From a virus, in IMG/VR virus record IMGVR_UViG_3300032229_000533, positions 118,340 through 182,339 of that record: DNA of 64,000 nt; one strand, 5' to 3'. Positions 19,910 through 33,610 of the stretch are shown in pieces. Made by a program: the position numbers and the translations under genes. Within the stretch, counting starts at the first letter, position 1. The number at the start of each line of letters is the position of its first letter. The notes beneath the pieces are model-generated. The model was not told where the DNA came from and ran no database searches. It saw only the letters and a list, made by a program, of their open reading frames with translations.

Positions 19910-20014
19910 AATTGTTTGTTTTGTTTTATTTATAAATTATTTTAATTGTTTCGTTATTGATTTAATAAGTATAGGTAAAGGTGAGATAATTGTCAATTAT
20001 TGGTAATTAATTTT

Positions 20015-21280
20015 TTAAATCATCCAAGAACTAACTTCTTCTAATGACTTGTAAGTTAATTCATTAAGAGAATTTAAAATTTCCTCAACGTTATTTGGGT
20101 CTACACCACCAATTGACATTCTAAACCATCCTTTATTTTCTTTTGAACCAAAATATTCAAAAGGTACTAACCCAATACCACATCTATTAATTAAAAATTT
20201 GGTATAACTTTCAATATTTGTAAATGATAAAGACTCACCCAAATAAATTGAAATATAGATTCCACCTTCAGGTCTTTGGTAATCAATACGGAATCCTTTA
20301 TCTTTTAATTCTTGGATTTTATCACATATTTTGTTTGAAATATCTGAATATTGTTTTGTTTTTGACTTAACAAATTCAACCATATCCTCATAATCATTTA
20401 GATATTTTGCAACAGCGTTTTGTTCTGGTTTAGGTGCCCAAGCTCCAATGTGCGAGAAAACTTCTGTCATCTTACCTATGATGTCCTGTGGACCAAACAT
20501 CCAACCAACTCTAATACCTGTTGCACATAATGATTTAGAAATACCATCCACACAAATCAAATAGTCACGGACTTCAGGACATAATGTTAATGGGTGAACA
20601 AATGAACCCTCAACAGTTAAGTCAGAGTATATTTGGTCAAAGAACAAATACAACGGTCTTGAACCTACCTGTGATTCTCTAATCTTATTCTCGTTTACTA
20701 CCAATTCACAGATACTCTTTAATACCTCAGGATTGATTACACGACCTGTTGGGTTTTGAGGAGAACAAATACAAATTAAAGATGTTTTGTCATTAATTGC
20801 CGTGTCAATATCTGACGCTGTTGGAAAAAACGAGTTCTCAGGTTTACATTCAATTTCTTGTTTAACCGCCCCATGTAAAAAACTATAGTGGTTGTTGTTC
20901 CAAGATGGAACAGGATAGATAACTCCATCACCGTCATTAACCAACGCTTTATAAACCGTATAGATTAACGGACGAACTCCACCACCAACTAATATCTCAT
21001 TTTCGGTATAATCAATACCTTGTCTTTTCTTTAGGTATTCACTAACCGATTGTCGTAAATTTAATTGACCTGCAGACAATGGATAATTGGTTAGGTTTTC
21101 ATTATAAGAATCAACAATGTAATTTTTTAGTTTTTCTGGGATTGGATTTATACTTGAATCAAAATCACCAATTGTTAAATTTTGGACTTTTTTTGTTTTT
21201 GAAATCTCTTTGATTTGTTGAGAGATTTTGATGATTTCAGAACCTACAATGTTGTTTCCTACGTGCGATAATTTTTTCAT
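20015..21280 (-). CDS. PLP-dependent aminotransferase class I/II
   Basis: CSPQNPTG, FDQIY, DGISKSLCATGIRVG (PLP lysine), FRMS. Confidence 0.9.
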   Translation of the reverse strand: MKKLSHVGNNIVGSEIIKISQQIKEISKTKKVQNLTIGDFDSSINPIPEKLKNYIVDSYNENLTNYPLSAGQLNLRQSVSEYLKKRQGIDYTENEILVGGGVRPLIYTVYKALVNDGDGVIYPVPSWNNNHYSFLHGAVKQEIECKPENSFFPTASDIDTAINDKTSLICICSPQNPTGRVINPEVLKSICELVVNENKIRESQVGSRPLYLFFDQIYSDLTVEGSFVHPLTLCPEVRDYLICVDGISKSLCATGIRVGWMFGPQDIIGKMTEVFSHIGAWAPKPEQNAVAKYLNDYEDMVEFVKSKTKQYSDISNKICDKIQELKDKGFRIDYQRPEGGIYISIYLGESLSFTNIESYTKFLINRCGIGLVPFEYFGSKENKGWFRMSIGGVDPNNVEEILNSLNELTYKSLEEVSSWMI

Positions 21281-21319
21281 GTTGCAAATGTAATACTTTA
21301 TTTTTGTTTTTCAAAATTT

Positions 21320-21408
21320 TGGCGGAAGGTGAGGGGCTCGAACCCTCGCGACTTTTACATCCTATCAGTTTAGCAAACTGACCCCTTCACCAACTTGGGT
21401 AACCTTCC
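21320..21408 (-). tRNA. tRNA-Ser(GCT), CCA encoded
   Basis: tcagt-ttGCTaa-actga anticodon arm, long variable arm, canonical T-loop. Confidence 0.95.
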
Positions 21409-21409
21409 A

Positions 21410-21730
21410 TTATTTTATTAACTCCAATAGAACATAAGTTAATTTATATCCTGTAAATGCCCCAAGAGCAGATGGGATTGGAAACACAATCATCTTACCT
21501 AAATCGGTAACATACTTTGGTCTGTTAACAATCTTACCCATAAAAAAATAATAGGTGATATATCCTAACAATACCGCCAAATCTGTCTTGGTTGCAATGA
21601 ATACAACTAATGTTGCACCTATAAATCCAAAGACAAAATTATCTCTAACTCCTTCCCATATTTCGTATGGGGTGGCATCTTTATACTCTTTAACAATTTT
21701 TTGAAATGATTTTCTATTTCTCTTAAACAT
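21410..21730 (-). CDS. Small membrane protein
   Basis: 106 aa with three hydrophobic stretches. Confidence 0.65.
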   Translation of the reverse strand: MFKRNRKSFQKIVKEYKDATPYEIWEGVRDNFVFGFIGATLVVFIATKTDLAVLLGYITYYFFMGKIVNRPKYVTDLGKMIVFPIPSALGAFTGYKLTYVLLELIK

Positions 21731-21745
21731 ACTCTAATTTTTTTG

Positions 21746-21819
21746 TCGGAATGGGTGGAATTGAACCACCGACCATTTGCGTATAAGGCAACCGCTTCTC
21801 ACCACTGAGCTACATTCCG
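21746..21819 (-). tRNA. tRNA-Ile(TAT)
   Basis: CGGAATG/CATTCCG acceptor; ttgc-ctTATac-gcaa anticodon arm; ggtgg-ttcaatt-ccacc T-arm. Confidence 0.88.
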
Positions 21820-21840
21820 TATCATACAAATATAAAAAAA

Positions 21841-21869
21841 ATCCCTCTGAATTTCAAACTCAGAGGGAT
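21841..21869 (-). terminator. Intrinsic terminator
   Basis: atccctctga/tcagagggat 10-bp stem followed by a T run on the minus strand. Confidence 0.8.
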
Positions 21870-21894
21870 AAATTATTTTTAATAAAAAATTATT

Positions 21895-22365
21895 TTATTT
21901 TAAGAATCTCAATTTATAAATAGTACTGTAAATTAATTCTTGAACAGTATCAATTTGATTTTGAATAAAAGACTCTTTAACTGACTTTCTATTTTTTTCA
22001 ATATTTTCATCTAACCCTTTAAAGTAAGTTATTAGTTGCTCTGTTGATTTATAATCAACCATTTTAATTGTTTTATATCCTGTTAACAAATCGTTTTTAC
22101 CTTGGTAGCTCTCAACAATTCCGTCAATTAGTTCAACAATCCCATCGTAATACGTACCTAATGCAGTATGTTCAGCAAATGATGATTGTGATTTTGTTTG
22201 CCAATGAAATACATGTGCCTGACTTCTTGAATGAAGTAATGTTGAAATCATATCAACAATATCCCCATCCTCAGCAATATCATCAGCAGTTTCTTTTTTT
22301 TCGGCTTCACTCAACTGTATTACTTTATACAATTGTTCTTTTGTCAATGTTACTCTTTTTTCCAT
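21895..22365 (-). CDS. Ferritin/Dps-like four-helix protein (DUF5856-like)
   Basis: Start moved to MEKRV at 22365 because the track start lies inside a tRNA. Motifs AHVFHWQT...HTALGTYYDG...ELIDGIVESYQG. Confidence 0.7.
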   Translation of the reverse strand: MEKRVTLTKEQLYKVIQLSEAEKKETADDIAEDGDIVDMISTLLHSRSQAHVFHWQTKSQSSFAEHTALGTYYDGIVELIDGIVESYQGKNDLLTGYKTIKMVDYKSTEQLITYFKGLDENIEKNRKSVKESFIQNQIDTVQELIYSTIYKLRFLK

Positions 22366-22403
22366 ACATATAAATACCTTGCCATTTGGAAAAAAATTAT
22401 TTG

Positions 22404-22475
22404 TACCGATGGGAAGAATTGAACTTCCGACAACTTGGATATGAATCAAGTGCTCTACCACTGAACTACATCGGC
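22404..22475 (-). tRNA. tRNA with CAT anticodon, probably elongator Met
   Basis: GCCGATG/CATCGGT acceptor; cttga-ttCATat-ccaag. Lacks the initiator GGG/CCC stem and the C4/C5 Ile2 pattern. Confidence 0.8.
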
Positions 22476-22480
22476 ATTAG

Positions 22481-22555
22481 TGGTTTCATAGGGACTCGAA
22501 CCCCAACGTCTTTTCGTCCGTAGCGAAATGTTTTATCCAATTAAACTATAAAACC
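22481..22555 (-). tRNA. tRNA-Arg(ACG)
   Basis: tttcg-ctACGga-cgaaa; its 5' 15 nt overlap the HNH ORF end. Confidence 0.88.
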
Positions 22556-23218
22556 ATTGTTGTATTTTTGATAATATTTAACCCATTTTCTAATTGCATT
22601 ATCACTAACATTATATTTTTTACCTGTCCCAACGTAACCAAACTTTTCAATCTCATCTATCAAATTGTTGTAGTCAGGTCTTTCTGTTTTTCGTCTATCT
22701 TTATAATATTCTTCTTTCTCCTTAGTAAAAATTTTTCTCATATCTTCTTTATATGTTTTACTTTTTGTGTTTTTACCACAGTGAGTTGGTAGAGTTGCAT
22801 TACAGTTTGGACAAACTATTCTTAAATTCTCAATCCTATTATCATTCCAAACCCCATTGATATGGTCAATAATTAACGACATCTTTTTTCCCATCCATTC
22901 CTCACCTTGACCACATAATTCGCAATTTCTTTTTTTGATACCTGTTTCATATAACCTTTCCTTCAATCGGCTCCTATTATATGAGGACCCTTCAGTTAGA
23001 ATATCATCTAATTGAATGGTTTTTTCTTTGGTTGATTGATTTAATTTTTCAATTCTAACTTCGTCAGGATTAAAGTGGTCTACATTTATATTATATTTTT
23101 TCAAATATTTTTTTAAGGTATTAAAATTACCTCCTGCAGCTCTTAACCCAAGTTTATGTAAACACTCTGTTTGTGTTTTAGAATTTTTAACAATTTCATC
23201 TAATTTAATTTTATCCAT
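22541..23218 (-). CDS. HNH homing-type endonuclease with flanking HTH-like segments
   Basis: CELCG...LIIDHING...DNRIENLRIVCPNCNA; C-terminal GKKYNVSDNAIRKW. Confidence 0.88.
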   Translation of the reverse strand: MDKIKLDEIVKNSKTQTECLHKLGLRAAGGNFNTLKKYLKKYNINVDHFNPDEVRIEKLNQSTKEKTIQLDDILTEGSSYNRSRLKERLYETGIKKRNCELCGQGEEWMGKKMSLIIDHINGVWNDNRIENLRIVCPNCNATLPTHCGKNTKSKTYKEDMRKIFTKEKEEYYKDRRKTERPDYNNLIDEIEKFGYVGTGKKYNVSDNAIRKWVKYYQKYNNGFIV

Positions 23219-23282
23219 AATTCGAACCTTTAATTATAAATATGTCGAACCATGTAAAAATTTATAGTAGAAATAAAAAAAG

Positions 23283-23353
23283 TTGTCCCTGGAGGATTCG
23301 AACCTCCACAATTTCCGTCAAAGGGAAATGTCCTGCCATTAGACGAAAGGACA
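23283..23353 (-). tRNA. tRNA-Gln(TTG)
   Basis: tttcc-ctTTGac-ggaaa; U1-A72. Confidence 0.93.
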
Positions 23354-23360
23354 ATTTGTG

Positions 23361-23442
23361 TGGGAGTAGTAGGACTCGAACCTACGAACTCAAAAGAGGT
23401 TTGATTTACAGTCAAATGCAGTTGCCGCTGTGCCATACTCCC
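23361..23442 (-). tRNA. tRNA-Tyr(GTA)
   Basis: tttga-ctGTAaa-tcaaa; long variable arm. Confidence 0.93.
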
Positions 23443-23447
23443 ATTAG

Positions 23448-23519
23448 CACGGATGGAGAATTACGATATCCCGACACCTAGTTTTGGAGACTAGTGCTCT
23501 GCCCCTGAGCTACATCCGT
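23448..23519 (-). tRNA. tRNA-Trp(CCA) with non-canonical T-loop
   Basis: ctagt-ctCCAaa-actag; perfect ACGGATG/CATCCGT acceptor; T-loop reads ATCGTAA. Confidence 0.8.
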
Positions 23520-23531
23520 ATTTTTTTTTTG

Positions 23532-23602
23532 AGGTCGGTATAGGATTTGAACCTATGTAAGCGGTTTTGCAGACCGACGCCTAACCACTCGGCCAACCGA
23601 CC
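23532..23602 (-). tRNA. tRNA-Cys(GCA)
   Basis: cggt-ctGCAaa-accg; discriminator U. Confidence 0.93.
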
Positions 23603-23608
23603 TTTTAG

Positions 23609-23683
23609 TGTCCCCGATGGGACTCGAACCCATGACTCCTTCATTAAAAGTGAAGTGCTCTAAACCAACTGAGCTACGAAGAC
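23609..23683 (-). tRNA. tRNA-Lys(TTT)
   Basis: cttca-ctTTTaa-tgaag. Confidence 0.93.
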
Positions 23684-23689
23684 ATTAAG

Positions 23690-23761
23690 TTGTCACGATA
23701 GGATTTGAACCTATGACCGCTTCCGTATCAGAGAAGAACTCTACCACTGAGTTACGTGACA
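23690..23761 (-). tRNA. tRNA-Ile(GAT)
   Basis: cttct-ctGATac-ggaag. Confidence 0.92.
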
Positions 23762-23768
23762 ATAAAAT

Positions 23769-24101
23769 TTATTGTGGTAAAAAAAACATGTTAACAATTA
23801 CATCCCAAAACCAATTTCTTGGAATTTCTTCACATTCAATTCTACCATTTTGAAAATACGTTGTTTTATAATACATTGTCGGTGACTTTTGAATTAAAAC
23901 CCTGTGTTTTGGAGTAAACAACATTGTTTCGGTTAATGATTCATATTCTTTGTCCCATTTTGCAAACACCTCATGCTCCGAACCTTCAATTATTATTTTT
24001 CCTATCTTACCTGTCTTCCATTCAACAATTTCAGTTTTTAATTCAAATCTCTGTGAATGTGATAATATTGGTAATAAAAGGAACAGAACAATTATTTTCA
24101 T
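23769..24101 (-). CDS. Small secreted protein
   Basis: 110 aa; N-terminal signal-peptide-like MKIIVLFLLLPILSHS. Confidence 0.65.
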   Translation of the reverse strand: MKIIVLFLLLPILSHSQRFELKTEIVEWKTGKIGKIIIEGSEHEVFAKWDKEYESLTETMLFTPKHRVLIQKSPTMYYKTTYFQNGRIECEEIPRNWFWDVIVNMFFLPQ

Positions 24102-24131
24102 TTTTTTATTTTTTTAATTTAAATAATATTG

Positions 24132-24214
24132 CGGAGGATGAGGGAATCGAACCCCCAAGGCTTTTACACCCAGCTGATTTCAAGTCAGTGTCCTCGTCCA
24201 TTCGGGCACCCTCC
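24132..24214 (-). tRNA. tRNA-Ser(TGA)
   Basis: ctga-ctTGAaa-tcag; long variable arm; discriminator G. Confidence 0.93.
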
Positions 24215-24247
24215 GTATAACCGACCTAGCTCGGTAAACACATCGGA

Positions 24248-24326
24248 TGGGGTGACTAACGGGAGTCGAACCCGCGACCTCTTGAACCACAATCAAGCGC
24301 TCTAAACCAACTGAGCTATAGCCAAC
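24248..24326 (-). tRNA. tRNA-His(GTG), G-1 and CCA encoded
   Basis: cttga-ttGTGgt-tcaag; G-1 opposite C73. Confidence 0.92.
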
Positions 24327-24330
24327 ATGT

Positions 24331-24470
24331 AAAAGGTAGGGTTGACTTTATCAGGAATCCAGTCTCACGACTTCACACACCATTAGAGAGTTGGGTATTA
24401 CTACCTATCCTTAGTGTGTACCCTTGCGTCACGTCTCTCCACGATTATCAACCTACGCATTTTACTACCA
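24331..24470 (-). ncRNA. Candidate structured ncRNA in tRNA array
   Basis: Two GNRA-capped hairpins (ggta-GTAA-tacc and agtc-GTGA-gact), acacac/gtgtgt stem, long-range gtaggttga/tcaaccctac pairing. Confidence 0.5.
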
Positions 24471-24474
24471 TTTG

Positions 24475-24574
24475 TAGTCAGGACAGGATTCGAACCTGTA
24501 ATGGTATTATACATTCCCATTTCCCCTATGATTGGGAGTGCCAATGGTTTATAAGCCAATTCCACCACCTGACT
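24475..24574 (-). ncRNA. tRNA-like element (100 nt) with non-canonical centre
   Basis: AGTCAGG/CCTGACT-A acceptor, Leu-like D-arm start, acagg-ttcgaat-cctgt T-arm; no canonical anticodon loop. Confidence 0.65.
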
Positions 24575-24965
24575 ATTTTATTAACCCCCACACCTCTTTA
24601 CAATACTTCTCATTCTCAACCGCCTCAATCTCCATCGGGTGATTCTCATACCCATACTTTTTCAACATCTTATAGTACTTGCTCGCCACAGGTTGTAATG
24701 TGTGAGTGTATTCGTGTAATGTTGTTGTAATCAAATCACTAACATTTTTACAATTATTTTTAAACACTATAATTGTATGAGTGTCGGGACGATATTCACC
24801 ATACTTCAAAAAGTCATCGTTTTTACTCTGAGATTTCACAATCGCTTTACAAAAACCTTTTCTTTTATTCACCCCAAACATAACCTCACAAATACCAATT
24901 GTTTTATCAACAATTTGTCTAATCTCTTTGTGTGTTAAAGTCTTCAAATTAGTGTTTATTCTCAT
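24573..24965 (-). CDS. HExxH zincin-like protein
   Basis: Start moved to MRINTN, after a TATCTTTG box; LHEYTH...HPMEIEA. Confidence 0.7.
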   Translation of the reverse strand: MRINTNLKTLTHKEIRQIVDKTIGICEVMFGVNKRKGFCKAIVKSQSKNDDFLKYGEYRPDTHTIIVFKNNCKNVSDLITTTLHEYTHTLQPVASKYYKMLKKYGYENHPMEIEAVENEKYCKEVWGLIK

Positions 24966-25029
24966 ATTATATCCCCGTTTTGTTACACAAAGATACGGAA
25001 TATTCCCCAAATCACCAAAAAAAGTTTTG

Positions 25030-25162
25030 TAGTCAAGGTCGGACTCGAACCGAATACCGTTCTTGACGGATTAGACAACCTTATAACGTCTCGCGTCCAA
25101 ATGGTTATGGACCGTGGTGTTTTTCGGACTTGGGTACCTTCCCGCATTACGCCCACTTGACT
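25030..25162 (-). ncRNA. tRNA-like element (133 nt) with expanded centre
   Basis: AGTCAAG/CTTGACT-A acceptor and tcgg-ttcgagt-ccga T-arm enclosing three small hairpins (gtcca/tggac, agac/gtct, ccgt/acgg). Confidence 0.6.
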
Positions 25163-25164
25163 AA

Positions 25165-25366
25165 CCCCAGTTGTTCGTTCATCTCGGAGATGGGTGCTCC
25201 TGCACGTGTTTCCACCCACGGGATGGTAGCTTTTCTCCTCGGTATTGTAGGACCGAGTGCCTGTTGAGCAACCATTGGCTACTAATGGTTTTGTTTACCC
25301 CCTTCACCAGCTTAATGGACTGGCTGCCATATCGGAAGTGGGGGTTTCCTGTTATTTCAGGACTTC
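25165..25366 (-). ncRNA. Candidate multi-hairpin ncRNA
   Basis: GC-rich against background; stems gaagt/acttc, tcctg/cagga, ccagt/gctgg, aaccatt/aatggtt, ctcggt/accgag and gggtg/caccc. Confidence 0.5.
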
Positions 25367-25367
25367 G

Positions 25368-25440
25368 TGGTAAGGGTTGGAATCGAACCAACGGCACAGG
25401 GATTTTCAGTCCCTTGCTCTACCTACTGAGCTACCATACC
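25368..25440 (-). tRNA. tRNA-Phe(GAA)
   Basis: aggga-ctGAAaa-tccct. Confidence 0.93.
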
Positions 25441-25446
25441 AAATTT

Positions 25447-25698
25447 GAGGTTGAGACCCTCTGTGTTGTAGTGTACGATTATGTTTTCCATAATTCAAGT
25501 AATGTCACTCATCTTTATATCTCCTTTCTCAAGGGAACAACACAATATTGTTGATAATGATGGAGTACCCGTCTCGCTCCAATCTTAAGTGCTTCTTCAG
25601 TTTTACGAGGTCCTCGGCACTGTCCTTTTCAGGGGGTGATGAATTCCAATTCCATTCTGAAGAGTCGACCTTCGTTGAATGGGGAAAACCATTATCAA
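25447..25698 (-). ncRNA. Candidate two-domain structured ncRNA
   Basis: Domain 1: 9-bp ttgataatg/cattatcaa stem (25551-9/25690-8), tcttcag/ctgaaga, ggag/ctcc. Domain 2: tgtgttgt/acaacaca stem with complementary ttgaga and tctcaa loop segments. Confidence 0.6.
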
Positions 25699-25758
25699 TT
25701 CCTTTCGTCGGGGGAGTAGGTCACCAACTTCTTTAACCCCTACTCCCCCACATTATTG

Positions 25759-25830
25759 TAGTCGGTACGGGAATCGAACCCGTCTTTTATCCGTGAAAGG
25801 GATATGTCCTAACCGATAGACTAACCGACC
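25759..25830 (-). tRNA. tRNA-Glu(TTC)
   Basis: tatcc-ctTTCac-ggata. Confidence 0.93.
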
Positions 25831-25837
25831 AATTGTG

Positions 25838-25910
25838 TAGTCCCTGTAGGACTCGAACCTACGACTGCTTGCATGTAAGGCAAGAGCTCTACCAACTGAG
25901 CTAAAGGACT
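25838..25910 (-). tRNA. tRNA-Val(TAC)
   Basis: cttgc-ctTACat-gcaag. Confidence 0.93.
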
Positions 25911-25920
25911 ATTTTTTTCC

Positions 25921-25935
25921 AACATGTCAAAGACC
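25921..25935 (-). promoter_or_regulatory. boxA-like antitermination site
   Basis: GGTCTTTGACATGTT, 10 nt upstream of tRNA-Val; near-identical copy at 29269-29282. Confidence 0.6.
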
Positions 25936-25990
25936 TATTTTGTTTTTCAACGATACAAAGGTAATACATTTTTTTTAAAGTTTTGGACTA

Positions 25991-26032
25991 AAAACAAAAA
26001 ACCCCAAACTTTTTTTCAAAGTTCGGGGTTTT
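25991..26032 (-). terminator. Attenuator terminator 1
   Basis: aaaaccccgaacttt-gaaaa-aaagtttggggtttt followed by tgttttt. Confidence 0.85.
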
Positions 26033-26083
26033 AATATCTTGTTATTTCTAACTTGTTATTAACGTACTACCTTATATCCGAAC

Positions 26084-26167
26084 TCAATTTTGCATATGAC
26101 GATACCAGCTACAGAATACCTCTTGTTGCTTAATAACCGACGACATATGTTTAATTGATGTTCTCAT
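26084..26167 (-). CDS. Leader peptide 1 (27 aa) of tRNA array 1
   Basis: Hand translation MRTSIKHMSSVIKQQEVFCSWYRHMQN*. Upstream TTTG-N19-TATTATTG promoter. Stop codon overlaps gagttcgg, which is complementary to the terminator 5' arm. Confidence 0.75.
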   Translation of the reverse strand: MRTSIKHMSSVIKQQEVFCSWYRHMQN

Positions 26168-26230
26168 TGTTTTATAATTATTACAATAATACGAAAAGTT
26201 TCGTATTTGTCAAATATTTTTTTGTTTTAG

Positions 26231-26303
26231 TACCCCAAGAGGGATTCGAACCCTCAAAAACTTGTTCCTAAGACAAGCGTGTATACCGTTCCACCATCGG
26301 GGT
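26231..26303 (-). tRNA. tRNA-Leu(TAG) without long variable arm
   Basis: cttgt-ctTAGga-acaag; only 5 nt (ttttt) between anticodon and T arms. Confidence 0.88.
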
Positions 26304-26304
26304 G

Positions 26305-26400
26305 TTCATCACATCGTACAGGCATTCTACTCCCAGCTCCGAGGAATTGTATCTAACTTAGCCCTTCTCCACCGCTGTATGGGTACCTGAGGATATGATT
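26305..26400 (-). ncRNA. Candidate small structured RNA between tRNAs
   Basis: GC-rich 95-nt spacer with tacag/ctgta closing stem; the fold is not resolved. Confidence 0.35.
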
Positions 26401-26403
26401 TTG

Positions 26404-26477
26404 TATCCCCGATTGGATTCGAACCAATGACCCACAGCTTAGAAGGCTGTTGCTCTATCCAACTGAGCTACGGAGAC
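26404..26477 (-). tRNA. tRNA-Arg(TCT)
   Basis: acagc-ctTCTaa-gctgt. Confidence 0.93.
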
Positions 26478-26486
26478 ATATTTTTG

Positions 26487-26574
26487 TGGTACCGAGAGCG
26501 GGACTCGAACCCGCACGAACATTACTGTCCAAGGGATTTTAAGTCCCTCGTGTCTACCTTTTCACCACCTCGGC
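26487..26574 (-). tRNA. tRNA-Leu(TAA), CCA encoded
   Basis: aggga-ctTAAaa-tccct; long variable arm. Confidence 0.95.
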
Positions 26575-26622
26575 GTCTTGTTTTGTTGTACAAATATAGG
26601 AAATAAAATTGGATACTACAAC

Positions 26623-27357
26623 TTATAGAGAAAAATTTTCTTCAAATAATGTATTTGAATCATTTTCTTCTGTGTTGTAAGTGTGTTCTAATTCAACGGT
26701 TGAATTGTTGAAATTAAAGATGAATCGTCCGTCAGAACCTTCGTTGATTTCCCAACCACCGAAATGACTTTCAAGTTGACTATAACACCAATCTTCAATT
26801 GAGGCAGGAACTGCATCACTTGTTTCATCAAATGAACTTTCAATATAACCAGAATCTCCACCACCATTGTAACTTAGAGTTAGGATACCATCACTTGGAA
26901 CTTCAACATCTTGCATGTCTTCTTCCATCCACTTATCAAATCTTGATTTATCCTCGTCAGAATCATACTCAACTGTATTACCATCACCTCTATCGTAATA
27001 TGAATAATTGTGAGTTACGGTAAGTTCTTTTCTCTTACAATCAATTTCAATATCAATGTTTTGATAACTCATTGTATCCATATCAGGAGATTCATATGCA
27101 CCCTCAGAAATAACATGATTCATTACTTTTTTAAGAATTGGTGTCAATCCGTCAGGTAACTCTGCTCTATAGTTATTTTCAAAATGTTGTATACGTCTCC
27201 AATCAATGTCATCATGTGACAAGTCATATTGGTCTGAATCCAATTCAATACTAATTACTCCTTCTGTCATACCCAATGACGCAAGATAGTTACAAGTTCT
27301 GTTTAAGTATTTTTTTTCGTCTGGGGTTAAAATTTCTGCCATATTAATAAATATCAA
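26623..27357 (-). CDS. Hypothetical protein (DUF6878-like C-terminal domain)
   Basis: SYNGGGDSGYIE...GGWEINEGSDG motif, recalled from that family. Confidence 0.6.
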   Translation of the reverse strand: MIFINMAEILTPDEKKYLNRTCNYLASLGMTEGVISIELDSDQYDLSHDDIDWRRIQHFENNYRAELPDGLTPILKKVMNHVISEGAYESPDMDTMSYQNIDIEIDCKRKELTVTHNYSYYDRGDGNTVEYDSDEDKSRFDKWMEEDMQDVEVPSDGILTLSYNGGGDSGYIESSFDETSDAVPASIEDWCYSQLESHFGGWEINEGSDGRFIFNFNNSTVELEHTYNTEENDSNTLFEENFSL

Positions 27358-27701
27358 TCTTCTATTTTAAGTGTCCTCAACATCCATTGAGGTCGTTTAT
27401 TTTCTAAAATATTGTTCATCCATTCTTTTGCTGATGGTAAATAATTGTTACAATCTTCTTTTACGTGTTGTTCTCCAACATAACGAGTGTAAACTATTTT
27501 TCCATCACTATTAATGAATTCTGGTCCAAACCTTTTTTCCATTTCAAAAATCCCTTCGCTATGATGTCTGAACATTCTATGTAAAGAATCTCCCATCCAA
27601 CCTTTGGTTTCATCTAACCATTCGTGTAAATGAATATAATCTTCAGGTTTACCACCAAACTTTTTTGCGGAACTTTTTGCATGTATATTAGGATGTGCCA
27701 T
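27354..27701 (-). CDS. His-rich hypothetical protein (DUF6915-like)
   Basis: HPNIHAKSSAKKFGG...HEWLDETK...HRMFRHHSEGIF. Confidence 0.65.
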   Translation of the reverse strand: MAHPNIHAKSSAKKFGGKPEDYIHLHEWLDETKGWMGDSLHRMFRHHSEGIFEMEKRFGPEFINSDGKIVYTRYVGEQHVKEDCNNYLPSAKEWMNNILENKRPQWMLRTLKIED

Positions 27702-27719
27702 ATTTTATTTATTTATTTG

Positions 27720-27793
27720 TGGAGAAGGAGGGACTCGAACCCGCGACTTCTTGAATGCAAATCAAGCGCTCTAGCCAACTGAGCTACATCCCC
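27720..27793 (-). tRNA. tRNA-Ala(TGC)
   Basis: cttga-ttTGCat-tcaag; G3-U70. Confidence 0.93.
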
Positions 27794-27801
27794 AAACACT
27801 T

Positions 27802-27918
27802 TTAGTATAAACCATCTGTAATTGATTTATAGATAAGTACAACCATTCCGATTGCCCACGCACTTACCGCTAATATAATTACGGTGTCTTTCAGTGTAAT
27901 TTTCTTTAACAACTTCAT
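27802..27918 (-). CDS. 38-aa membrane peptide
   Basis: Hand translation MKLLKKITLKDTVIILAVSAWAIGMVVLIYKSITDGLY; TATCTTTG box upstream. Confidence 0.55.
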   Translation of the reverse strand: MKLLKKITLKDTVIILAVSAWAIGMVVLIYKSITDGLY

Positions 27919-27991
27919 AATGTTTTTTTAATGGTTTTCAAAATAGGTTACAAAGATAAATAAAAAGGTTTAATTACCAAAAATATTTTTG

Positions 27992-28065
27992 AGCCTCCTG
28001 TCGGATTCGAACCAACGACATTCGCATTACAAGTGCGACGCTCTGGCCAACTGAGCTAAGGAGGC
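27992..28065 (-). tRNA. tRNA-Thr(TGT)
   Basis: tcgca-ctTGTaa-tgcga. Confidence 0.93.
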
Positions 28066-28157
28066 GTTTTCGGTAAAGAATAGTCACGACCACCTCTGTT
28101 TCTCTTTACCTGTTATTCAATCGTGGCACAATGTGGTACGACCCTAACTGAATCTTG

Positions 28158-28231
28158 CGGTTCGGACGGGACTCGAACCCGCGACCTCCTGCGTGACAGG
28201 CAGGCATTCTAACCAGCTGAACTACCGAACC
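28158..28231 (-). tRNA. tRNA-Asp(GTC)
   Basis: cctgc-ctGTCac-gcagg. Confidence 0.95.
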
Positions 28232-28235
28232 AAAA

Positions 28236-28442
28236 TTCCCCACCTGAGATTCCAGTGAGTGGATTTTTCTTCTGTTTTCCTATTGAAAACACGAGACGGT
28301 CTTACCCGCACATAAACGTCAAACATACTCGGTGGGTTTGTTACGCCCAGGCTCCGACGAACCCCCTCTCTAAAGTCGTGGAAGGCTACAACTATACCAT
28401 TATTAAGAAACGGTACCAAATCTATTGGGTATCTCTTACCCC
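28236..28442 (-). ncRNA. Candidate ncRNA (about 205 nt) between tRNA-Gly and tRNA-Asp
   Basis: GC-rich spacer with no credible ORF; several short stems (tacc/ggta, ttttc/ggaaa, ccac/gtgg). Confidence 0.35.
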
Positions 28443-28445
28443 TTG

Positions 28446-28518
28446 AGCGGTAGACAGGTCTCGAACCTGCGACTTCGTACTTGGAAGGAACGCGCTCTAC
28501 CAACTGAGCTACTACCGC
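28446..28518 (-). tRNA. tRNA-Gly(TCC)
   Basis: cgttc-ctTCCaa-gtacg; its 5' 7 nt overlap the HNH ORF end. Confidence 0.9.
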
Positions 28519-29048
28519 ATTATTAAATTGTCATGTATTTCAAAATGACAATTTGAACAAACTAACATACACTTATCAACTTCATTTTTTAAGTTTTCAA
28601 AACTAAGACTTTTTCCTGATATCTGAAAATCTTTTTCTTTTGGGGTTTTATGATGAAATTGTAATGCTCTATCACATTTATTATACCCACATATTTCACA
28701 TTTTCCACCCTTATATTCTATCAATTCACGTTTTTTTCTTTTTCTCCACGATATTACATTTTCTGAATTTGTTTTAGGAATTTTATCTCTTGTAATAACG
28801 TATTTTTTAACTGTTTCAAATGCATGTCCCTTAAGTTTTGCAACTTTTTTCAAAGAACCAATTTCATCATACAAAACTTGTAACTCTTTCTTTTCCTCGT
28901 CACTCAAAGACACATCCTCACCTCCAAGTTTATGTAAGTTACAATGATAAGATACAGTTGACATAGCACAATTCAATTCGTTACAAATTTCTTTATACGT
29001 TTTACCTGATTTTCTTAATTCTATAATTTTTTCGGAGTATCTACCCAT
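28512..29048 (-). CDS. HTH plus HNH homing-type endonuclease
   Basis: N-terminal HTH (GKTYKEICNELNCAMSTVSYH); GGKCEICGY...LQFHH...KCMLVCSNCHFEIH. Confidence 0.85.
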   Translation of the reverse strand: MGRYSEKIIELRKSGKTYKEICNELNCAMSTVSYHCNLHKLGGEDVSLSDEEKKELQVLYDEIGSLKKVAKLKGHAFETVKKYVITRDKIPKTNSENVISWRKRKKRELIEYKGGKCEICGYNKCDRALQFHHKTPKEKDFQISGKSLSFENLKNEVDKCMLVCSNCHFEIHDNLIMR

Positions 29049-29093
29049 AATTAATATTTTAATTAATAAATATTAGACACTTCGTAAAAAATG

Positions 29094-29177
29094 CTGGTAC
29101 GGTAGGATTCGAACCTACGATGTGGTCACCCAGTCAGGTTAACAGCCTGATGCTCTCGGCCTCTAAGCGACGTACCA
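29094..29177 (-). tRNA. tRNA-Asn(GTT) with long variable arm
   Basis: tcagg-ctGTTaa-cctga; U1-A72, G73; 15-nt variable region with a tgg-GTGA-cca hairpin. Confidence 0.88.
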
Positions 29178-29183
29178 ATTATG

Positions 29184-29256
29184 TAGAGTAGACAGGGGTC
29201 GAACCTGCACGCACTTGCTCCCAAAGCAAGGGACCTACCAATTGGTCAACTACTCT
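29184..29256 (-). tRNA. tRNA-Pro(TGG)
   Basis: cttgc-ttTGGga-gcaag. Confidence 0.9.
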
Positions 29257-29268
29257 ATTTTATTTCCC

Positions 29269-29282
29269 ACATGTCAAAGAAC
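29269..29282 (-). promoter_or_regulatory. boxA-like antitermination site
   Basis: GTTCTTTGACATGT, 12 nt upstream of tRNA-Pro and just after a TTTG-N20-TATATTTG promoter. Confidence 0.65.
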
Positions 29283-29310
29283 ACTACAAATATACAAAAG
29301 AAAACCTTTA

Positions 29311-29349
29311 AAAACAAAAAACCCCGAACTTTTTATGTTCAGGGTTTTT
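29311..29349 (-). terminator. Attenuator terminator 2
   Basis: aaaaaccctgaac-ataaaaa-gttcggggttttt followed by tgtttt; similar in sequence to terminator 1. Confidence 0.85.
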
Positions 29350-29373
29350 AAATTTTGGCTTCTTAGTATTCCA

Positions 29374-29463
29374 TTATTTAAAGTCTGAACATGAGCATAG
29401 AGTGCCTAACCCGTCATTTGTCGGTGTTAAATTCGCTCTATCAAGTGTGTTCAAATTTTTCAT
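29374..29463 (-). CDS. Leader peptide 2 (29 aa) of tRNA array 2
   Basis: Hand translation MKNLNTLDRANLTPTNDGLGTLCSCSDFK*. TATTTATA upstream. Internal atgttcag (29385-92) is complementary to the terminator 5' arm. Confidence 0.78.
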   Translation of the reverse strand: MKNLNTLDRANLTPTNDGLGTLCSCSDFK

Positions 29464-29505
29464 AATGTTTCTATAAATATAGTCAAAAATTTAAAAAATC
29501 AACCC

Positions 29506-29766
29506 CTACAGGTATTTTTTGAATAAATCTTCCAAAGTTTTTTCATCTTCTTGTGAAAGACGGTAATATTTTTCTTTCAATAGGTCCATTTTCTCAATGA
29601 AAACTCCCTCTAAAACTCCAATGTTTTTTTCAGTATCTTCTACTGCGGATGGACTAATATGTCCTCCCTCAATTAGAGCTTCAATAAGTTCTTTAATGTC
29701 TCGTTTGTTACATGCTGATACAAACTCATCGGCATCAACGTCTACGTATGTGTCAAATTCTGGCAT
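29506..29766 (-). CDS. Hypothetical protein
   Basis: Start moved to MPEFDT, downstream of a TATATTTG box. Confidence 0.65.
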   Translation of the reverse strand: MPEFDTYVDVDADEFVSACNKRDIKELIEALIEGGHISPSAVEDTEKNIGVLEGVFIEKMDLLKEKYYRLSQEDEKTLEDLFKKYL

Positions 29767-29851
29767 GATATGTTTTTTTTTTAAATTGTACAATGCAAAT
29801 ATAAGGACTATTTTGGAACATTCCAACTATTTATTAAGATAAATTATTGAA

Positions 29852-31018
29852 ATGAAGTTAAACAGAAAAAACATATTAAAAGAGGGTTTATTTACAAATT
29901 TACTTAAAACTTCAGTTAAAACATTACCATCAACTTTCAAATATCTTGATGATATTACAAGATTAATGACCCCTGAAGTCAAAGCAATCGCCAACACAAC
30001 TACACCAGCAATTCTGAATGTAAGTGAAGGAACTGCAAAAAGATTTTATAAAGATTTTTTTCTATCAACAAACCAATTGTCAAGAAATGCTACTAAAGTT
30101 TCAATGGAAGGGTTAACTCAAAAAGGTATTCAAAATTTAATAGGATTGAAAAAAAATATATCTGACTTATTAAACTTGACTAATGTGTCTCCTGGTGCAA
30201 AAATAGATGCAAAAAACCTAATAAATGTTGTACATAGTACAAAGAATGGGGTTGATAATTTAGTTAATGAGTTGAAATTAGTTAAACCAAATAGTGCGGA
30301 TTTAACAGTTGCAAAAGAAATGCAGACACAAATTGATGATGTTATTTCTAAAAATAATACAATTTTTAAAAATGCGACCATGGGGACATCTACATCAACT
30401 AACCCAAAACCAGTTGTTAAACCAAAAGTCGAGCCAAAATCACTAACTAAACCAAAAGTTGAACCTAAACCAATAGTTAAACCAAAAGTTGAGCCAAAAC
30501 CAACGGTTAAAACAAAAGTTGAACCAAAAGTTAAATCATCATCGCCTAAAGTTAAAATACCTGTGGGAAACTTCAACGAAGTCCAAATTATAAGAGGTTC
30601 GTATAACCTTCCAACACAAAAATCTGCACGTTTTGTTGACCAACTGCTTGAAAAATCTTTCTATGAGGGGTTTGGAAAACGTCACGATATGTGGTCAGAT
30701 GAAATTATAAATCAATTAACCCCTGAAACAAAAAGTTATTTGTTACAATTGAAAAAAAATCTTGAAAAAGAAGGTTTGTTGTATACAAATGGATTTACAC
30801 AAGAATTTAAAAGGTTACCAAAAACGGCAGATGAAGAAATAAAATTACTTTCTGGAAATCATTGGGGTGGACTTGGAAGAAGAATGGGTGCACAAAATTC
30901 AATCAAATCTTTACCTATCCCAAGCAATAGTGTAATTCAAAATTTATTAGACAAGACAATGCAATCATCCAAGAAAGAAGAGATTTTGCAACTTTATAAA
31001 ACTTTGTTTAATAAGTAA
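29852..31018 (+). CDS. Basic hypothetical protein with PKVEPK repeats
   Basis: 388 aa; TATTTATT upstream. Confidence 0.7.
   Translation: MKLNRKNILKEGLFTNLLKTSVKTLPSTFKYLDDITRLMTPEVKAIANTTTPAILNVSEGTAKRFYKDFFLSTNQLSRNATKVSMEGLTQKGIQNLIGLKKNISDLLNLTNVSPGAKIDAKNLINVVHSTKNGVDNLVNELKLVKPNSADLTVAKEMQTQIDDVISKNNTIFKNATMGTSTSTNPKPVVKPKVEPKSLTKPKVEPKPIVKPKVEPKPTVKTKVEPKVKSSSPKVKIPVGNFNEVQIIRGSYNLPTQKSARFVDQLLEKSFYEGFGKRHDMWSDEIINQLTPETKSYLLQLKKNLEKEGLLYTNGFTQEFKRLPKTADEEIKLLSGNHWGGLGRRMGAQNSIKSLPIPSNSVIQNLLDKTMQSSKKEEILQLYKTLFNK
30401..30530 (+). repeat. Degenerate 30-bp coding tandem repeat (about 4 copies)
   Basis: aaaccaaaagt(c/t)ga(g/a)cc(a/t)aaa at 30-nt periodicity, encoding KPKVEPKxxV. Confidence 0.8.
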
Positions 31019-31175
31019 ATTTAATTGTATCCCCTTCTGAATAACGAATACCTGAGAAAATAACACCTGTTTGTGTTGTGTCACCCAAAGACTTAACTTC
31101 GTACTTGTATTGTCCGTTGTCTACTGTTTGACAACACAATACCAAAAATAGTTTAATTCCAATTATTGTTTTCAT
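31008..31175 (-). CDS. Small secreted or lipo-peptide (55 aa)
   Basis: Hand translation MKTIIGIKLFLVLCCQTVDNG...; ATGA overlap with the upstream ORF. Confidence 0.5.
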   Translation of the reverse strand: MKTIIGIKLFLVLCCQTVDNGQYKYEVKSLGDTTQTGVIFSGIRYSEGDTIKFTY

Positions 31176-31462
31176 TTTGTCAATAACATTAAAATTTTCT
31201 CTTTTGCTTCTTCAGTTGTGGAGTTATTTCGTCCACCAATATTCCACTCAATTTCTTCATCCATCCCAATTACTCGGCGATATTTCCAATCATAAACGGT
31301 AATGACTTCAGCGTTATCCAATTCTCTAATCCATTCCATTGTAACTTTTCCGTCACTACTTCTACCATTGGTCATTTCACCCAATGATTTGATTAATTGA
31401 TTTGGTGTCGCTTTAAATGTGCTTCCGTGAAAACTCGTTCCGTTTGCGCTTGCTGTTGGCAT
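31172..31462 (-). CDS. Hypothetical phage protein
   Basis: MPTASANGTSFHG...SDGKVTMEW...YDWK...EWNIGG. Confidence 0.7.
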   Translation of the reverse strand: MPTASANGTSFHGSTFKATPNQLIKSLGEMTNGRSSDGKVTMEWIRELDNAEVITVYDWKYRRVIGMDEEIEWNIGGRNNSTTEEAKEKILMLLTK

Positions 31463-31510
31463 GTGTAACATAATTTGTTTTTATTAAGGATACAAAGATA
31501 ATATTTTTTT

Positions 31511-31897
31511 CTAACTTGCCAACTCCTGATTTAACTTTTTTTCCAAACCTGAAATAATATATGATGCCGTCATGTAGTTGGTTGCAAGTGGTGTGTTATA
31601 TACATTACAAATCCTTAACAACATATTCACATCAACTTGGTGGGGATGAACCTCCAATGGGTCAATAAAGAACACAACCCCTGAGATTTCACCATCGGCA
31701 ATCATTGATGCAATTTGGGCGTCACCACCAAGTGGTCCTGACTTCATACATTCAACATCCAATCCCGCGTGTTCAATATGTTTTCCTGTGGTACCTGTCG
31801 CAATAACCTCAACCCTTTTGAAAAAATCCAACCTTTTCATAACAAAGGCAACCATGTCAGCCTTCTTTCCATCGTGAGCAATAACAGCAATTTTCAT
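31511..31897 (-). CDS. mgsA: Methylglyoxal synthase
   Basis: IAVIAHDGKK, ATGTTG, SGPLGGDAQI, FFIDPL..HPHQVDV..LLRIC. Confidence 0.95.
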   Translation of the reverse strand: MKIAVIAHDGKKADMVAFVMKRLDFFKRVEVIATGTTGKHIEHAGLDVECMKSGPLGGDAQIASMIADGEISGVVFFIDPLEVHPHQVDVNMLLRICNVYNTPLATNYMTASYIISGLEKKLNQELAS

Positions 31898-31899
31898 AA

Positions 31900-32205
31900 T
31901 TATTTTTGTTTTTCGTGAATTGAATTCTTACAATTTCCTTTGTGAGTCCCCCAAGTAAAATGACTATTTCCTGGTGAAACTACAATATATTCACATCCTT
32001 CTAAAGTGTAAATTTGGTAATATCTATCGTATGGTTCTGTAGAGGTACCAAGTTGTTTAATTTCAACAGGTTGTGATACCGTGTTTGGTTCAGGTTCCTT
32101 TTTAATATTAAAGTTACAACCTGATAATACTGTCATTAAAATCATTGATAGGATGATTATCAATATTCCTGCGGACAATCGTTTCATTACTTTTTCGTTA
32201 TACAT
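31900..32205 (-). CDS. Small lipoprotein
   Basis: Hydrophobic signal peptide ending in LSG-C. Confidence 0.7.
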   Translation of the reverse strand: MYNEKVMKRLSAGILIIILSMILMTVLSGCNFNIKKEPEPNTVSQPVEIKQLGTSTEPYDRYYQIYTLEGCEYIVVSPGNSHFTWGTHKGNCKNSIHEKQK

Positions 32206-32220
32206 ATTTTAAAATTTTTG

Positions 32221-32294
32221 TGGACCCTGCAGGATTTGAACCTGCGACCATCACATTATGAGTGTGCCGCTCTGACCGTCTGAGCTAAGGGTCC
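32221..32294 (-). tRNA. tRNA-Ile2(CAT), lysidine type
   Basis: caca-ctCATaa-tgtg; acceptor GGACCCT with C4-G69/C5-G68, the TilS determinants; closely resembles bacterial ileX. Confidence 0.8.
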
Positions 32295-32458
32295 ATTGGA
32301 ATGTTTAGAATAACACCAAATCTCCGTTGATGTTATCCCAATCATCTGAAACTGGTGACATTACAACAATGGTTGTATCTTCAGTTTCTTCTTGGGTTTT
32401 GATTGTTGGTTCGTTTTTCATGTTGCAAATATATAACATTTAAATATATCACACAAAT

Positions 32459-32872
32459 TTATTCTACGGTGTGTTCCCATTGAACTCTAACACAATTTTG
32501 AGGTAACCTATGAATGTGTCTGTAATTGTTAATATACCCCATCATATTAGCACTTCCAATTGCATTTGCTGAGTGTACAACAACATCAACAACAGGACTT
32601 CCATCCATCCATTTTTCAACCAACCATTTGGTACAATCCATACCAGTTTTTTCGGTGATGTTGTCGTAGTTCAATTCGTAATTGTGGTAAACATTCTTAT
32701 GCCATTCAACCATTGCACTATGACCCAAGTCATGGTCCAAAGAAATTAATTCAATATTTTCCAAACCAATTTCATTAATTTTATCTACGAATTGCTCGTA
32801 GTCTCTAACAACAACCCAATTCTCCACATCAACTGGAGTTCTTACGTCATCTAAGTAAATTCTTTTTTTCAT
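32459..32872 (-). CDS. Cyclic-phosphate-processing receiver-domain protein
   Basis: Start moved to MKKRIYLDD; LDDVR, ISLDHDLG, TGMDC, VHSAN motifs. Confidence 0.8.
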   Translation of the reverse strand: MKKRIYLDDVRTPVDVENWVVVRDYEQFVDKINEIGLENIELISLDHDLGHSAMVEWHKNVYHNYELNYDNITEKTGMDCTKWLVEKWMDGSPVVDVVVHSANAIGSANMMGYINNYRHIHRLPQNCVRVQWEHTVE

Positions 32873-33046
32873 AACACAAATATAAAATAAAATTTGGAGT
32901 TTCAAAACTCTTTTAAGATATTTATAGTTATGATGACAAACAAAACCTCAGTGGTCTTTTGGAATTGAAGTCATATAATGAGAACTTAGGTGTAAAGAGG
33001 ATTGGAAATCTCTAACCATAAACAATCTAAATCAATACAATATTCA

Positions 33047-33077
33047 AAAGGGGTGAAAAATTTTTCATCCCTTTTTT
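33047..33077 (+). terminator. Intrinsic terminator upstream of HNH gene
   Basis: aaaaggggtgaaa..tttcatccctttttt. Confidence 0.75.
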
Positions 33078-33121
33078 GTTTTTTGTATGAAAATAACTTA
33101 TTCTTTTAAAAAACTATAAAA

Positions 33122-33610
33122 ATGAGCGGAGTATTAGTGCTGAATTATGATTATACCCCATTGAATATAACTTCAACAAGGAGGGGGTTTGTACTTGTAG
33201 ATAAAGGTAAAGCGGAGATTGTAAAATCTGACGAGAACCCTATTATTGCAGGTTTTAACACCTATGTTAGACCTTTAATTATTAGACTATTAAGTTATAT
33301 TAAACATAATACAAGGAATATTAGGGTTAACAGAACAAGGATTTATAAAAGGGACAATCATGAATGTGTTTATTGCGGGTCAAAAAAACAATTAACTTTA
33401 GACCACGTAATACCTAAATCAAGAGGAGGACGTAATGAATGGACTAATTTGGTGACATGTTGTTTTAAATGTAACCTTAGAAAAGGAAACAAGACTCCTG
33501 AAGAAGCAAAAATGACAATGAACGTAAAACCATATGTTCCGTCATTGTTAAATGAAAATGGATTATTAAATAAAGTGTGGAATGATTATCAACAATCCTT
33601 TGTTTATTAG
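33122..33610 (+). CDS. HNH endonuclease (McrA-like)
   Basis: CVYCG...LTLDHVIPKSRGG...WTNLVTCCFKCNLRKG. Confidence 0.9.
   Translation: MSGVLVLNYDYTPLNITSTRRGFVLVDKGKAEIVKSDENPIIAGFNTYVRPLIIRLLSYIKHNTRNIRVNRTRIYKRDNHECVYCGSKKQLTLDHVIPKSRGGRNEWTNLVTCCFKCNLRKGNKTPEEAKMTMNVKPYVPSLLNENGLLNKVWNDYQQSFVY

Follow-up and report, generated by a model that had tools for sequence, protein, structure and literature searches.

The leaders trpL, hisL, leuL and pheL are leader-peptide attenuators of amino-acid operons, and the thrL and ilvGMEDA leaders are multivalent. The translation apparatus offers a further example: in E. coli, the pheST genes for phenylalanyl-tRNA synthetase are controlled by a leader-peptide attenuator whose leader is pheM. 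Phage tRNA arrays are usually viewed as constitutive codon-usage patches and, to our knowledge, the regulation of phage tRNA genes is essentially unknown. A full-text literature search for leader-peptide or attenuator control of tRNA genes in phages, or of operons and clusters of tRNA genes, returned nothing relevant. Here we describe a cassette of a large phage that is probably a ribosome-mediated (trp-type) transcription attenuator gating the phage's tRNA array, a reading that we draw from the sequence of the cassette and from those of its relatives.

Results

Phage genome and predicted host

The stretch of 64,000 nucleotides analyzed here (hereafter, the window) makes up the last 64 kb of a virus record in IMG/VR, which is 182 kb long and has a CheckV completeness of 61%; the genomes of related phages measure 310-326 kb. 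A gene for ribosomal protein bS21 lies about 1.3-1.5 kb ahead of the window start (G000:C1:116864-117019; Pfam PF01165, 27.9 bits), and because of this gene we grouped the record with the bS21-encoding Bacteroidetes jumbo phages (PMC9723584). It has been previously reported that the freshwater jumbo phages encoding bS21 have genomes of 293-331 kb, 31-34% GC and 5-25 tRNAs, and that their predicted hosts are Bacteroidetes/Flavobacterium (PMC9723584). In the window, TTTG-N19-TAnnTTTG, the promoter pattern of Bacteroidota, was counted 8 times where 1.1 would be expected, which agrees with the predicted Bacteroidetes/Flavobacterium host. Leader-peptide attenuation at amino-acid operons has been reported for Flavobacterium/Flavobacteria (PMC9723704).

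The minus strand of the window carries 24 tRNA genes identified by ARAGORN and one, Trp(CCA), identified by Rfam only, with HNH endonuclease and DUF genes interspersed among them. A nucleotide search with the cassette against GenBank phages gave no match. A close cultured relative was sought via a DUF6915 protein encoded in the window and none was found, every match being below 60% identity.

Architecture of cassette 1

Every cassette part, array and tRNA gene given below for the window lies on the minus strand. Cassette 1 opens with P1, a promoter of the Bacteroidota sigma-A type (26184-26214), in which TTTG (26214-26211) is followed after 19 nt by TATTATTG (26191-26184); it can also be read as TTGACA-16-TATTAT, and it gave the top sigma-70-like/promoter-like match in the 13.5 kb scanned (20000-33500). 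Because the Flavobacterium -7 box spans -12 to -5 (PMC9723704), transcription is predicted to start near 26179, which places the ATG at 26167 about 12 nt past the start. With this ATG begins leader ORF 1 (26084-26167), comprising 27 codons and a TGA stop (26086-26084). The predicted peptide, MRTSIKHMSSVIKQQEVFCSWYRHMQN, contains three Met, two His, Cys, Trp, Tyr and Phe, and zero Leu, Ala, Gly, Asp and Pro.

Codons 2-5 hold segment 1, GAACAUCAAUU (26153-26163), a putative anti-antiterminator that in MFE folds is the partner of segment 2 when the ribosome is absent. Segment 2, AAUUGAGUUCGG (26078-26089), is the candidate antiterminator strand; it overlaps the TGA stop and pairs with 26026-26019. 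In this pairing gagttcgg (26085-26078) meets ccgaactt (26026-26019) of the terminator 5' arm in 8 bp, seven Watson-Crick and one G-U, at -12 kcal/mol. The intrinsic terminator (25990-26032) consists of the 5' arm or segment 3 (26032-26018), a loop, the 3' arm or segment 4 (26012-25998) and a U-tract to about 25990. Its 15 pairs (26032-25998) fold at -20.3 kcal/mol (z -5.1), and it is, together with terminator 2 of the sister cassette described below, one of the best two terminators of the region. The sequence-only reading that we followed up had proposed this ORF with its composition, the promoter, the 8-bp pairing and the terminator, and each of them was found where that reading had placed it. 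An Rfam match to NsiR1 (25994-26053) scored 29.7 bits where the threshold is 39; it was rejected as an identity, since it is just the terminator hairpin.

Past the terminator lies a sigma-A -7 box of the TAnnTTTG type, TACCTTTG (25956-25963), a candidate internal promoter (P2) without a TTTG at the -33 distance, and immediately ahead of the first tRNA a conserved box, GTCTTTGACATGT (25922-25934), of putative boxA-like function. Array 1 follows (22403-25910; ARAGORN, Rfam), with tRNA genes for Val, Glu, Phe, His, Ser(UGA), Ile(GAU), Lys, Cys, Trp, Tyr, Gln, Arg(ACG) and Met and with embedded ORFs. The tRNA-Trp gene (anticodon CCA, 23448-23519) was missed by ARAGORN; it scored 47 bits in Rfam, its T arm is mismatched, and the single TGG codon of leader 1 had predicted it. 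Two more tRNAs, Ile(UAU) and Ser(GCU), lie past a gene terminator downstream of array 1 (21320-21819). The first of these, with the genomic anticodon TAT (which reads ATA), is at 21745-21819 beyond the terminator of a DUF5856 gene, and leader 1 is without an ATA codon.

Other elements stand among the tRNA genes. Between tRNA-Phe and tRNA-His, a GC-richer stretch of about 1 kb (24326-25366, minus strand; 41% GC) holds a 145-aa ORF with a HEYTH motif and a weak DUF3920 match, and at 24475-24574 there is a 100-nt tRNA-like element with acceptor and T arm only (30.5 bits). HNH endonuclease genes, one of them with an N-terminal HTH, lie between tRNA genes at 28515-29048 and 22544-23218 (minus strand); these are probably homing elements by which the arrays are reshuffled.

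Leader 1 is matched to array 1

The odd composition of the peptide, to which the earlier reading had drawn attention, proved to be rare: only 6 of 1172 random short ORFs (24-30 aa, related DNA) are without L, A, G, D and P, and the probability of lacking all five is 1.7e-4 under phage proteome composition. Counted over all 27 residues, and likewise over the 26 that follow Met1, 24 fall within the amino-acid set of array 1. When core residues were compared with background, 95% were in this set versus 64% (p=0.001), and the leader represents 13/13 array amino acids (p=0.004); not one of 3502 background ORFs equalled it on set fraction and coverage together (joint test p<=3e-4). Under strict wobble, with GTT excluded for tRNA-Val UAC and AGC requiring the distal tRNA-Ser GCU, the first array segment supplies tRNAs for 22/27 codons (81%), versus 49% in the background. 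Each tRNA species of that segment has at least one codon in the leader.

The mismatching codons, AGA, ACA and AAT, have their cognate tRNAs in the other array and are located within segments 1 and 2. The codons for the downstream tRNAs (the panel) occur 1-4 times each and are scattered, with no tandem runs like those of the his or trp leaders; as they are scattered, sensitivity to any one tRNA may be low. The idea that the order of residues mirrors the order of tRNAs, for which SIK, EVF and CSWY are suggestive, was rejected (0.39 vs 0.42 in the null).

A sister cassette ahead of array 2

Cassette 2 (29269-29481) is made up of a TATATTTAT motif (29481-29473), a leader (29463-29374), segment 2 AUGUUCAG (29392-29385), a terminator (29349-29317) and a box (29281-29269). 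The leader has 29 codons, and the array behind it is Pro-Asn-Gly-Asp-Thr-Ala-Leu-Arg-Leu. Residues 3-22 all belong to the set of eight amino acids that this array serves, a composition complementary to that of leader 1. Both cassettes of the window have the same architecture and near-identical terminators, so that the likeness of the two terminators reported earlier holds. The proposal built on it, of one ancestral cassette duplicated and recoded to fit each array, agrees with the shared architecture and terminator, and relatives with three cassettes fit it too.

The DUF6915 protein is embedded in array 2 (27357-27701, minus strand). Its homologues have 42-57% identity, and DUF6915 homologues are found in Bacillus (Tsamsa-like), Streptomyces and Gordonia phages that are rich in tRNAs; there are hints that DUF6915 has a tRNA-related role. 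A complete TTTG-N19-TAnnTTTG promoter also lies within array 2, at 27981-27951.

The leader is kept open and follows its array in related phages

We compared two sets of relatives: 80 related loci retrieved with the DUF6915 protein of array 2 and, as a hold-out, loci selected solely on the RNA pattern. The short ORF was open in every one of about 50 distinct cassettes from related ~320-kb phages. The sequence-only reading had made its case depend on the ORF being conserved as an open frame in relatives, and an ATG-started ORF of 22-43 codons, running from segment 1 through segment 2, was found in all tRNA-preceding cassettes, with 43/43 in the hold-out, a count that includes five inspected cases flagged by length/gap thresholds or contig ends, all five of which carry the leader. 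The two alternative frames of the leader were open in 0/53. In the pattern scan, the cassette occurs solely ahead of tRNAs; where no tRNAs followed, the matches were either fortuitous, in unrelated phages of high GC content, or at loci that are truncated.

Across 39 closed leader/array pairs, the presence of a tRNA was positively associated with its amino acid in the leader for 20/20 amino acids. In these pairs the in-set core residue fraction was 0.757 versus 0.473 when leaders and arrays were re-paired (p<=2e-4), 17/18 leader clusters (<60% identity) were individually significant (Fisher combined p 2e-27), and a permutation of the 18 cluster representatives gave 0.718 versus 0.469 (p=1e-4); leaders share descent, so these p-values overstate independence, and the cluster-representative test corrects for this only partly. 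Array content and order vary widely among relatives and the leaders vary along with them, such that the peptide sequence is poorly conserved while its amino-acid set tracks the array.

This tracking extends to codon boxes. Where arrays have Arg(UCU) only, the leaders contain 15 AGR and 0 CGN codons; where they have Arg(ACG) only, the counts are 11 CGN and 2 AGR, and phage genes overall use 80% AGR. Leaders of arrays with Ser(GCU) only contain 12 AGY and 1 TCN. No tracking of Leu isoacceptors by Leu codon boxes was seen across relatives.

Individual loci illustrate the match. A third leader, MRTTLLHTLLLDRQGLLRRLMP, a Leu/Arg-rich 22-mer, is located before Leu-Arg-Leu in L020 (~1258-1326), L029, L035 and L038; in the genomes with this leader, the Leu-Arg-Leu block has its own terminator, and the upstream leader is without Arg and has most of its Leu gone. 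In L136, a His/Ser/Leu 23-mer, MRNLSLHSLSYLSPLKGSGDILL (near 3480-3560), precedes His-Ser-Ser-Leu-Leu. The leader of L144 contains Ala, Pro and Leu, and its array contains the Ala, Pro and Leu tRNAs; that of L090 has three Pro codons, and its array begins with tRNA-Pro. Evidently, cassettes were duplicated and recoded as arrays split. The fit of leader to array is poor in a few relatives (L014, L159), and these misfits suggest that leaders lag behind array turnover.

Alternative helices of a predicted RNA switch

In 39/39 distinct cassettes, the segment 2 core GUUC(A/G)G stands at or just before the ORF end and is complementary to C(U/C)GAAC of the terminator 5' arm. A MAFFT alignment of 35 cassettes had 93.8% of cells paired in the antiterminator helix (2:3), a value biased towards pairing as segment 2 was placed by best pairing; slid controls reached at most 49%. 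Four pairs of this helix show changes on both sides, with one column pair being GC in 18 cassettes and AU in 15, and its covariation was 0.310 versus 0.157 when shuffled (0/500 shuffles reached it). These results demonstrate that the antiterminator pairing proposed for the window is conserved in relatives, with compensatory changes. In the terminator helix, 92.9% of cells were paired across the 35 cassettes.

With the terminator arm omitted, segment 2 pairs with (UU)GAAC in codons 2-5 in the MFE fold of most cassettes, and the 1:2 hairpin of the window folds at -21.8 kcal/mol (z -2.8). The leader starts MRT, MKT and KNLN are conserved because codons 2-5 encode the segment 1 pairing. The panel codons sit in the loop of the 1:2 hairpin, and it is segment 2 that encodes the residues breaking the array match, in the C-terminal tails CSCSD and CSSD.

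In 35/39 distinct cassettes, the segment 2 core either begins within 20 nt ahead of the stop or directly follows it; in L015, L090, L046 and L049 it is found further upstream. In leader 1 of the window, a TGT-to-TGA change shifted the stop onto segment 2, and the relatives continue for six codons more; with either stop position, a ribosome terminating at the leader stop would be expected to cover segment 2. As predicted from the folds, segments 1:2, 2:3 and 3:4 are the trp layout. Taken together, the open frames of the relatives, the matching of composition and of Arg/Ser boxes, and the conserved pairing support the leader/antiterminator/terminator interpretation, first put forward for the window by itself, and the reading of the cassette as a putative trp-type attenuator.

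Promoters and boxes around the terminator

Homologous leaders in relatives are preceded by a perfect TTTG-N19-TA(TC/TA)TTTG. In leader 2 (29473-29481, minus strand) and in many leaders of relatives, TATATTTAT stands 8-12 nt ahead of the ATG, and leader-1-type cassettes have the host TTTG-N19-TAnnTTTG in its place; two promoter classes may feed the attenuators at different infection times. A TAnnTTTG box is located in the terminator-to-tRNA spacer of most relatives and is absent where the tRNA begins 9-12 nt past the terminator. This is the spacing of the first tRNA in four relatives, and read-through would be the only route into these four arrays because a promoter would not fit behind the terminator. 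Given the post-terminator -7 boxes and the promoter internal to array 2, the arrays probably also have attenuator-independent inputs.

The 182-kb record contains an exact 12-mer of the GTCTTTGACATGT box at just two sites, one behind each attenuator (25922-25934 and 29269-29281, minus strand). This box, which stands ahead of the first tRNA of either array, is written (G/T)TCTTTGACATGT, also (G/T)TCTTTGACAT or GTCTTTGACAT, and GTTCTTTGA(C/A)AT is conserved in relatives, in some of which the GTCTTTGACATGT-type box precedes, and does not follow, the -7 box. We take the (G/T)TCTTTGACAT box to resemble the boxA of rRNA operons (the NusB/NusE site; E. coli GCTCTTTAACAA); a literature search for boxA with the box sequence returned only irrelevant papers.

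Of the sequencing runs, only two labelled as RNA contributed, each with a small share in contig form; the contigs cover or bridge the cassettes and were given no weight as evidence. One, from a relative of about 90% similarity, covers 25991-26181 and then 204 nt past the terminator, with possible DNA carry-over and with ends and levels unreadable; one of its ends is 2 nt away from the start predicted for the transcript, contig ends not being transcript ends. The second bridges leader 2, terminator 2 and the start of tRNA-Pro, again with possible DNA carry-over and unreadable ends and levels.

Discussion

In the mechanism that we propose, host RNA polymerase would start at P1 and transcribe the 27-codon leader, with codons 4-26 serving as the panel of codons for the downstream tRNAs. 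With the ribosome absent, segment 1 (GAAC, codons 2-5) and segment 2 (GUUCGG, at the stop) would pair, the terminator 3:4 would form and transcription would stop. If decoding were fast, the ribosome at the stop would cover segment 2 and the terminator would form as well. A ribosome held at a panel codon, for which tRNA is scarce, would mask segment 1 and leave segment 2 free, permitting the 2:3 pairing and read-through into the tRNA genes. The resulting tRNA output would relieve slow decoding, and the cassette would thus exert negative-feedback control of supply, in the manner of an OR gate with about 13 amino acids as inputs. From this layout we infer that the ORF is translated, in which direction the regulation acts and what triggers it physiologically.

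Because the output is tRNA, the sensed signal would most sensibly be decoding capacity, that is tRNA supply, and not amino-acid starvation as such; starvation would be expected to trigger the switch too, but extra tRNA would not relieve it. Candidate triggers are AT-rich phage codon use versus the host tRNA pool, host tRNA loss during infection, and host anticodon nucleases. A wider and much more tentative idea, which we hold to be possible but somewhat doubtful, is that the attenuators form a phage tRNA homeostat and counter-defence sensor, in which cleavage or depletion of host tRNAs (by anticodon nucleases or host shut-off) would stall the matching leader and turn on the replacement tRNA block, the leaders being recoded whenever tRNA genes move between blocks.

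Other explanations have to be weighed against trp-type attenuation. The attenuator could be real but minor, with promoters past the terminator mainly driving the arrays and the cassette insulating array 1 or adding a small conditional top-up; most cassettes indeed conserve a -7 box between terminator and tRNA, and a full TTTG-N19-TAnnTTTG is present inside array 2 (27981-27951). However, the P2 box (25963-25956) is without a -33 TTTG, in four relatives the spacer behind the terminator is too short to fit a promoter, and insulation alone leaves both an array-tracking conserved ORF and a conserved antiterminator unexplained. We regard this arrangement as unlikely. The 1:2 / 2:3 / 3:4 design would react to any ribosome slowing and single scattered codons provide weak specificity, such that the element might sense overall ribosome activity instead of specific tRNAs, leaving leader composition functionally irrelevant. 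This we consider quite improbable, as composition tracks the array in 17/18 leader clusters, the Arg/Ser codon boxes track it as well, and the two leaders of one genome are complementary.

It is very improbable that we are dealing with a stand-alone small gene or a small RNA that acts elsewhere and matches the array by coincidence or shared codon bias: the unit does have its own promoter and a strong terminator, and the ORF region folds as a long hairpin, but the peptide is poorly conserved while its amino-acid set tracks the array, 0/3502 background ORFs match the array as well, the cassette stands solely ahead of tRNAs, and no Rfam family reaches threshold. Direct, ribosome-free sensing of tRNA by the RNA in the manner of a T-box would suit regulated genes that belong to the translation apparatus and an antiterminator/terminator switch. 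Against it, no Rfam T-box match was obtained at E<=1 over 20000-33500, neither a specifier-loop nor a T-box motif was seen, binding of 13 kinds of tRNA by one RNA is implausible, and an ATG-started frame is kept open in every cassette; we find this explanation scarcely credible.

If the reading as a trp-type attenuator is true, this would be the first case found of tRNA genes under ribosome-mediated attenuation, and a direct closed loop would connect decoding speed and tRNA supply. Since the leader gives a readable demand signal, the question of why large phages carry tRNAs becomes testable, as do the partition of arrays into regulatory blocks and the response of phage tRNAs to host tRNA-targeting defences. 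A further use of the leader is in annotation, where it can point to tRNAs that have degenerated or been overlooked, as with the Trp tRNA here, and cassettes of this kind could provide compact programmable multi-codon sensors for synthetic biology.

Like trp-type attenuators, the cassette has a promoter, a short ORF with regulatory codons, predicted helices 1:2, 2:3 and 3:4, and an intrinsic terminator ahead of the genes, and its stop codon is positioned so that a terminating ribosome would mask segment 2. Multivalent sensing has its precedent in ilv (Ile/Val/Leu) and thr (Thr/Ile). Unlike these attenuators, the phage cassette would regulate tRNAs and not enzymes, with an output that feeds back on decoding; its panel extends to about 13 amino acids, or 8 for the sister cassette, represented for the most part by single codons dispersed along the leader and not by runs; and it is a phage-encoded element, with a predicted Bacteroidota host and without a Shine-Dalgarno sequence. 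The likeness to pheST/pheM is that a leader peptide controls a translation-apparatus gene according to the decoding of cognate codons, although pheST/pheM concerns one amino acid and a protein product, and tRNA genes are not its target. T-box riboswitches likewise tie tRNA status to the choice between terminator and antiterminator ahead of translation-related genes, but they bind one uncharged tRNA directly and need neither ribosome nor ORF. The apparent resemblance to the boxA of rRNA operons lies in the (G/T)TCTTTGACAT sequence and in its place at the start of an operon of untranslated structured RNA; unlike in boxA/Nus antitermination, the box here follows the attenuator as a separate putative element, and some relatives have it ahead of the -7 box. 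Taken together, the attenuation machinery is classical, and what is new is the regulated target, the sensed signal and the breadth of the panel.
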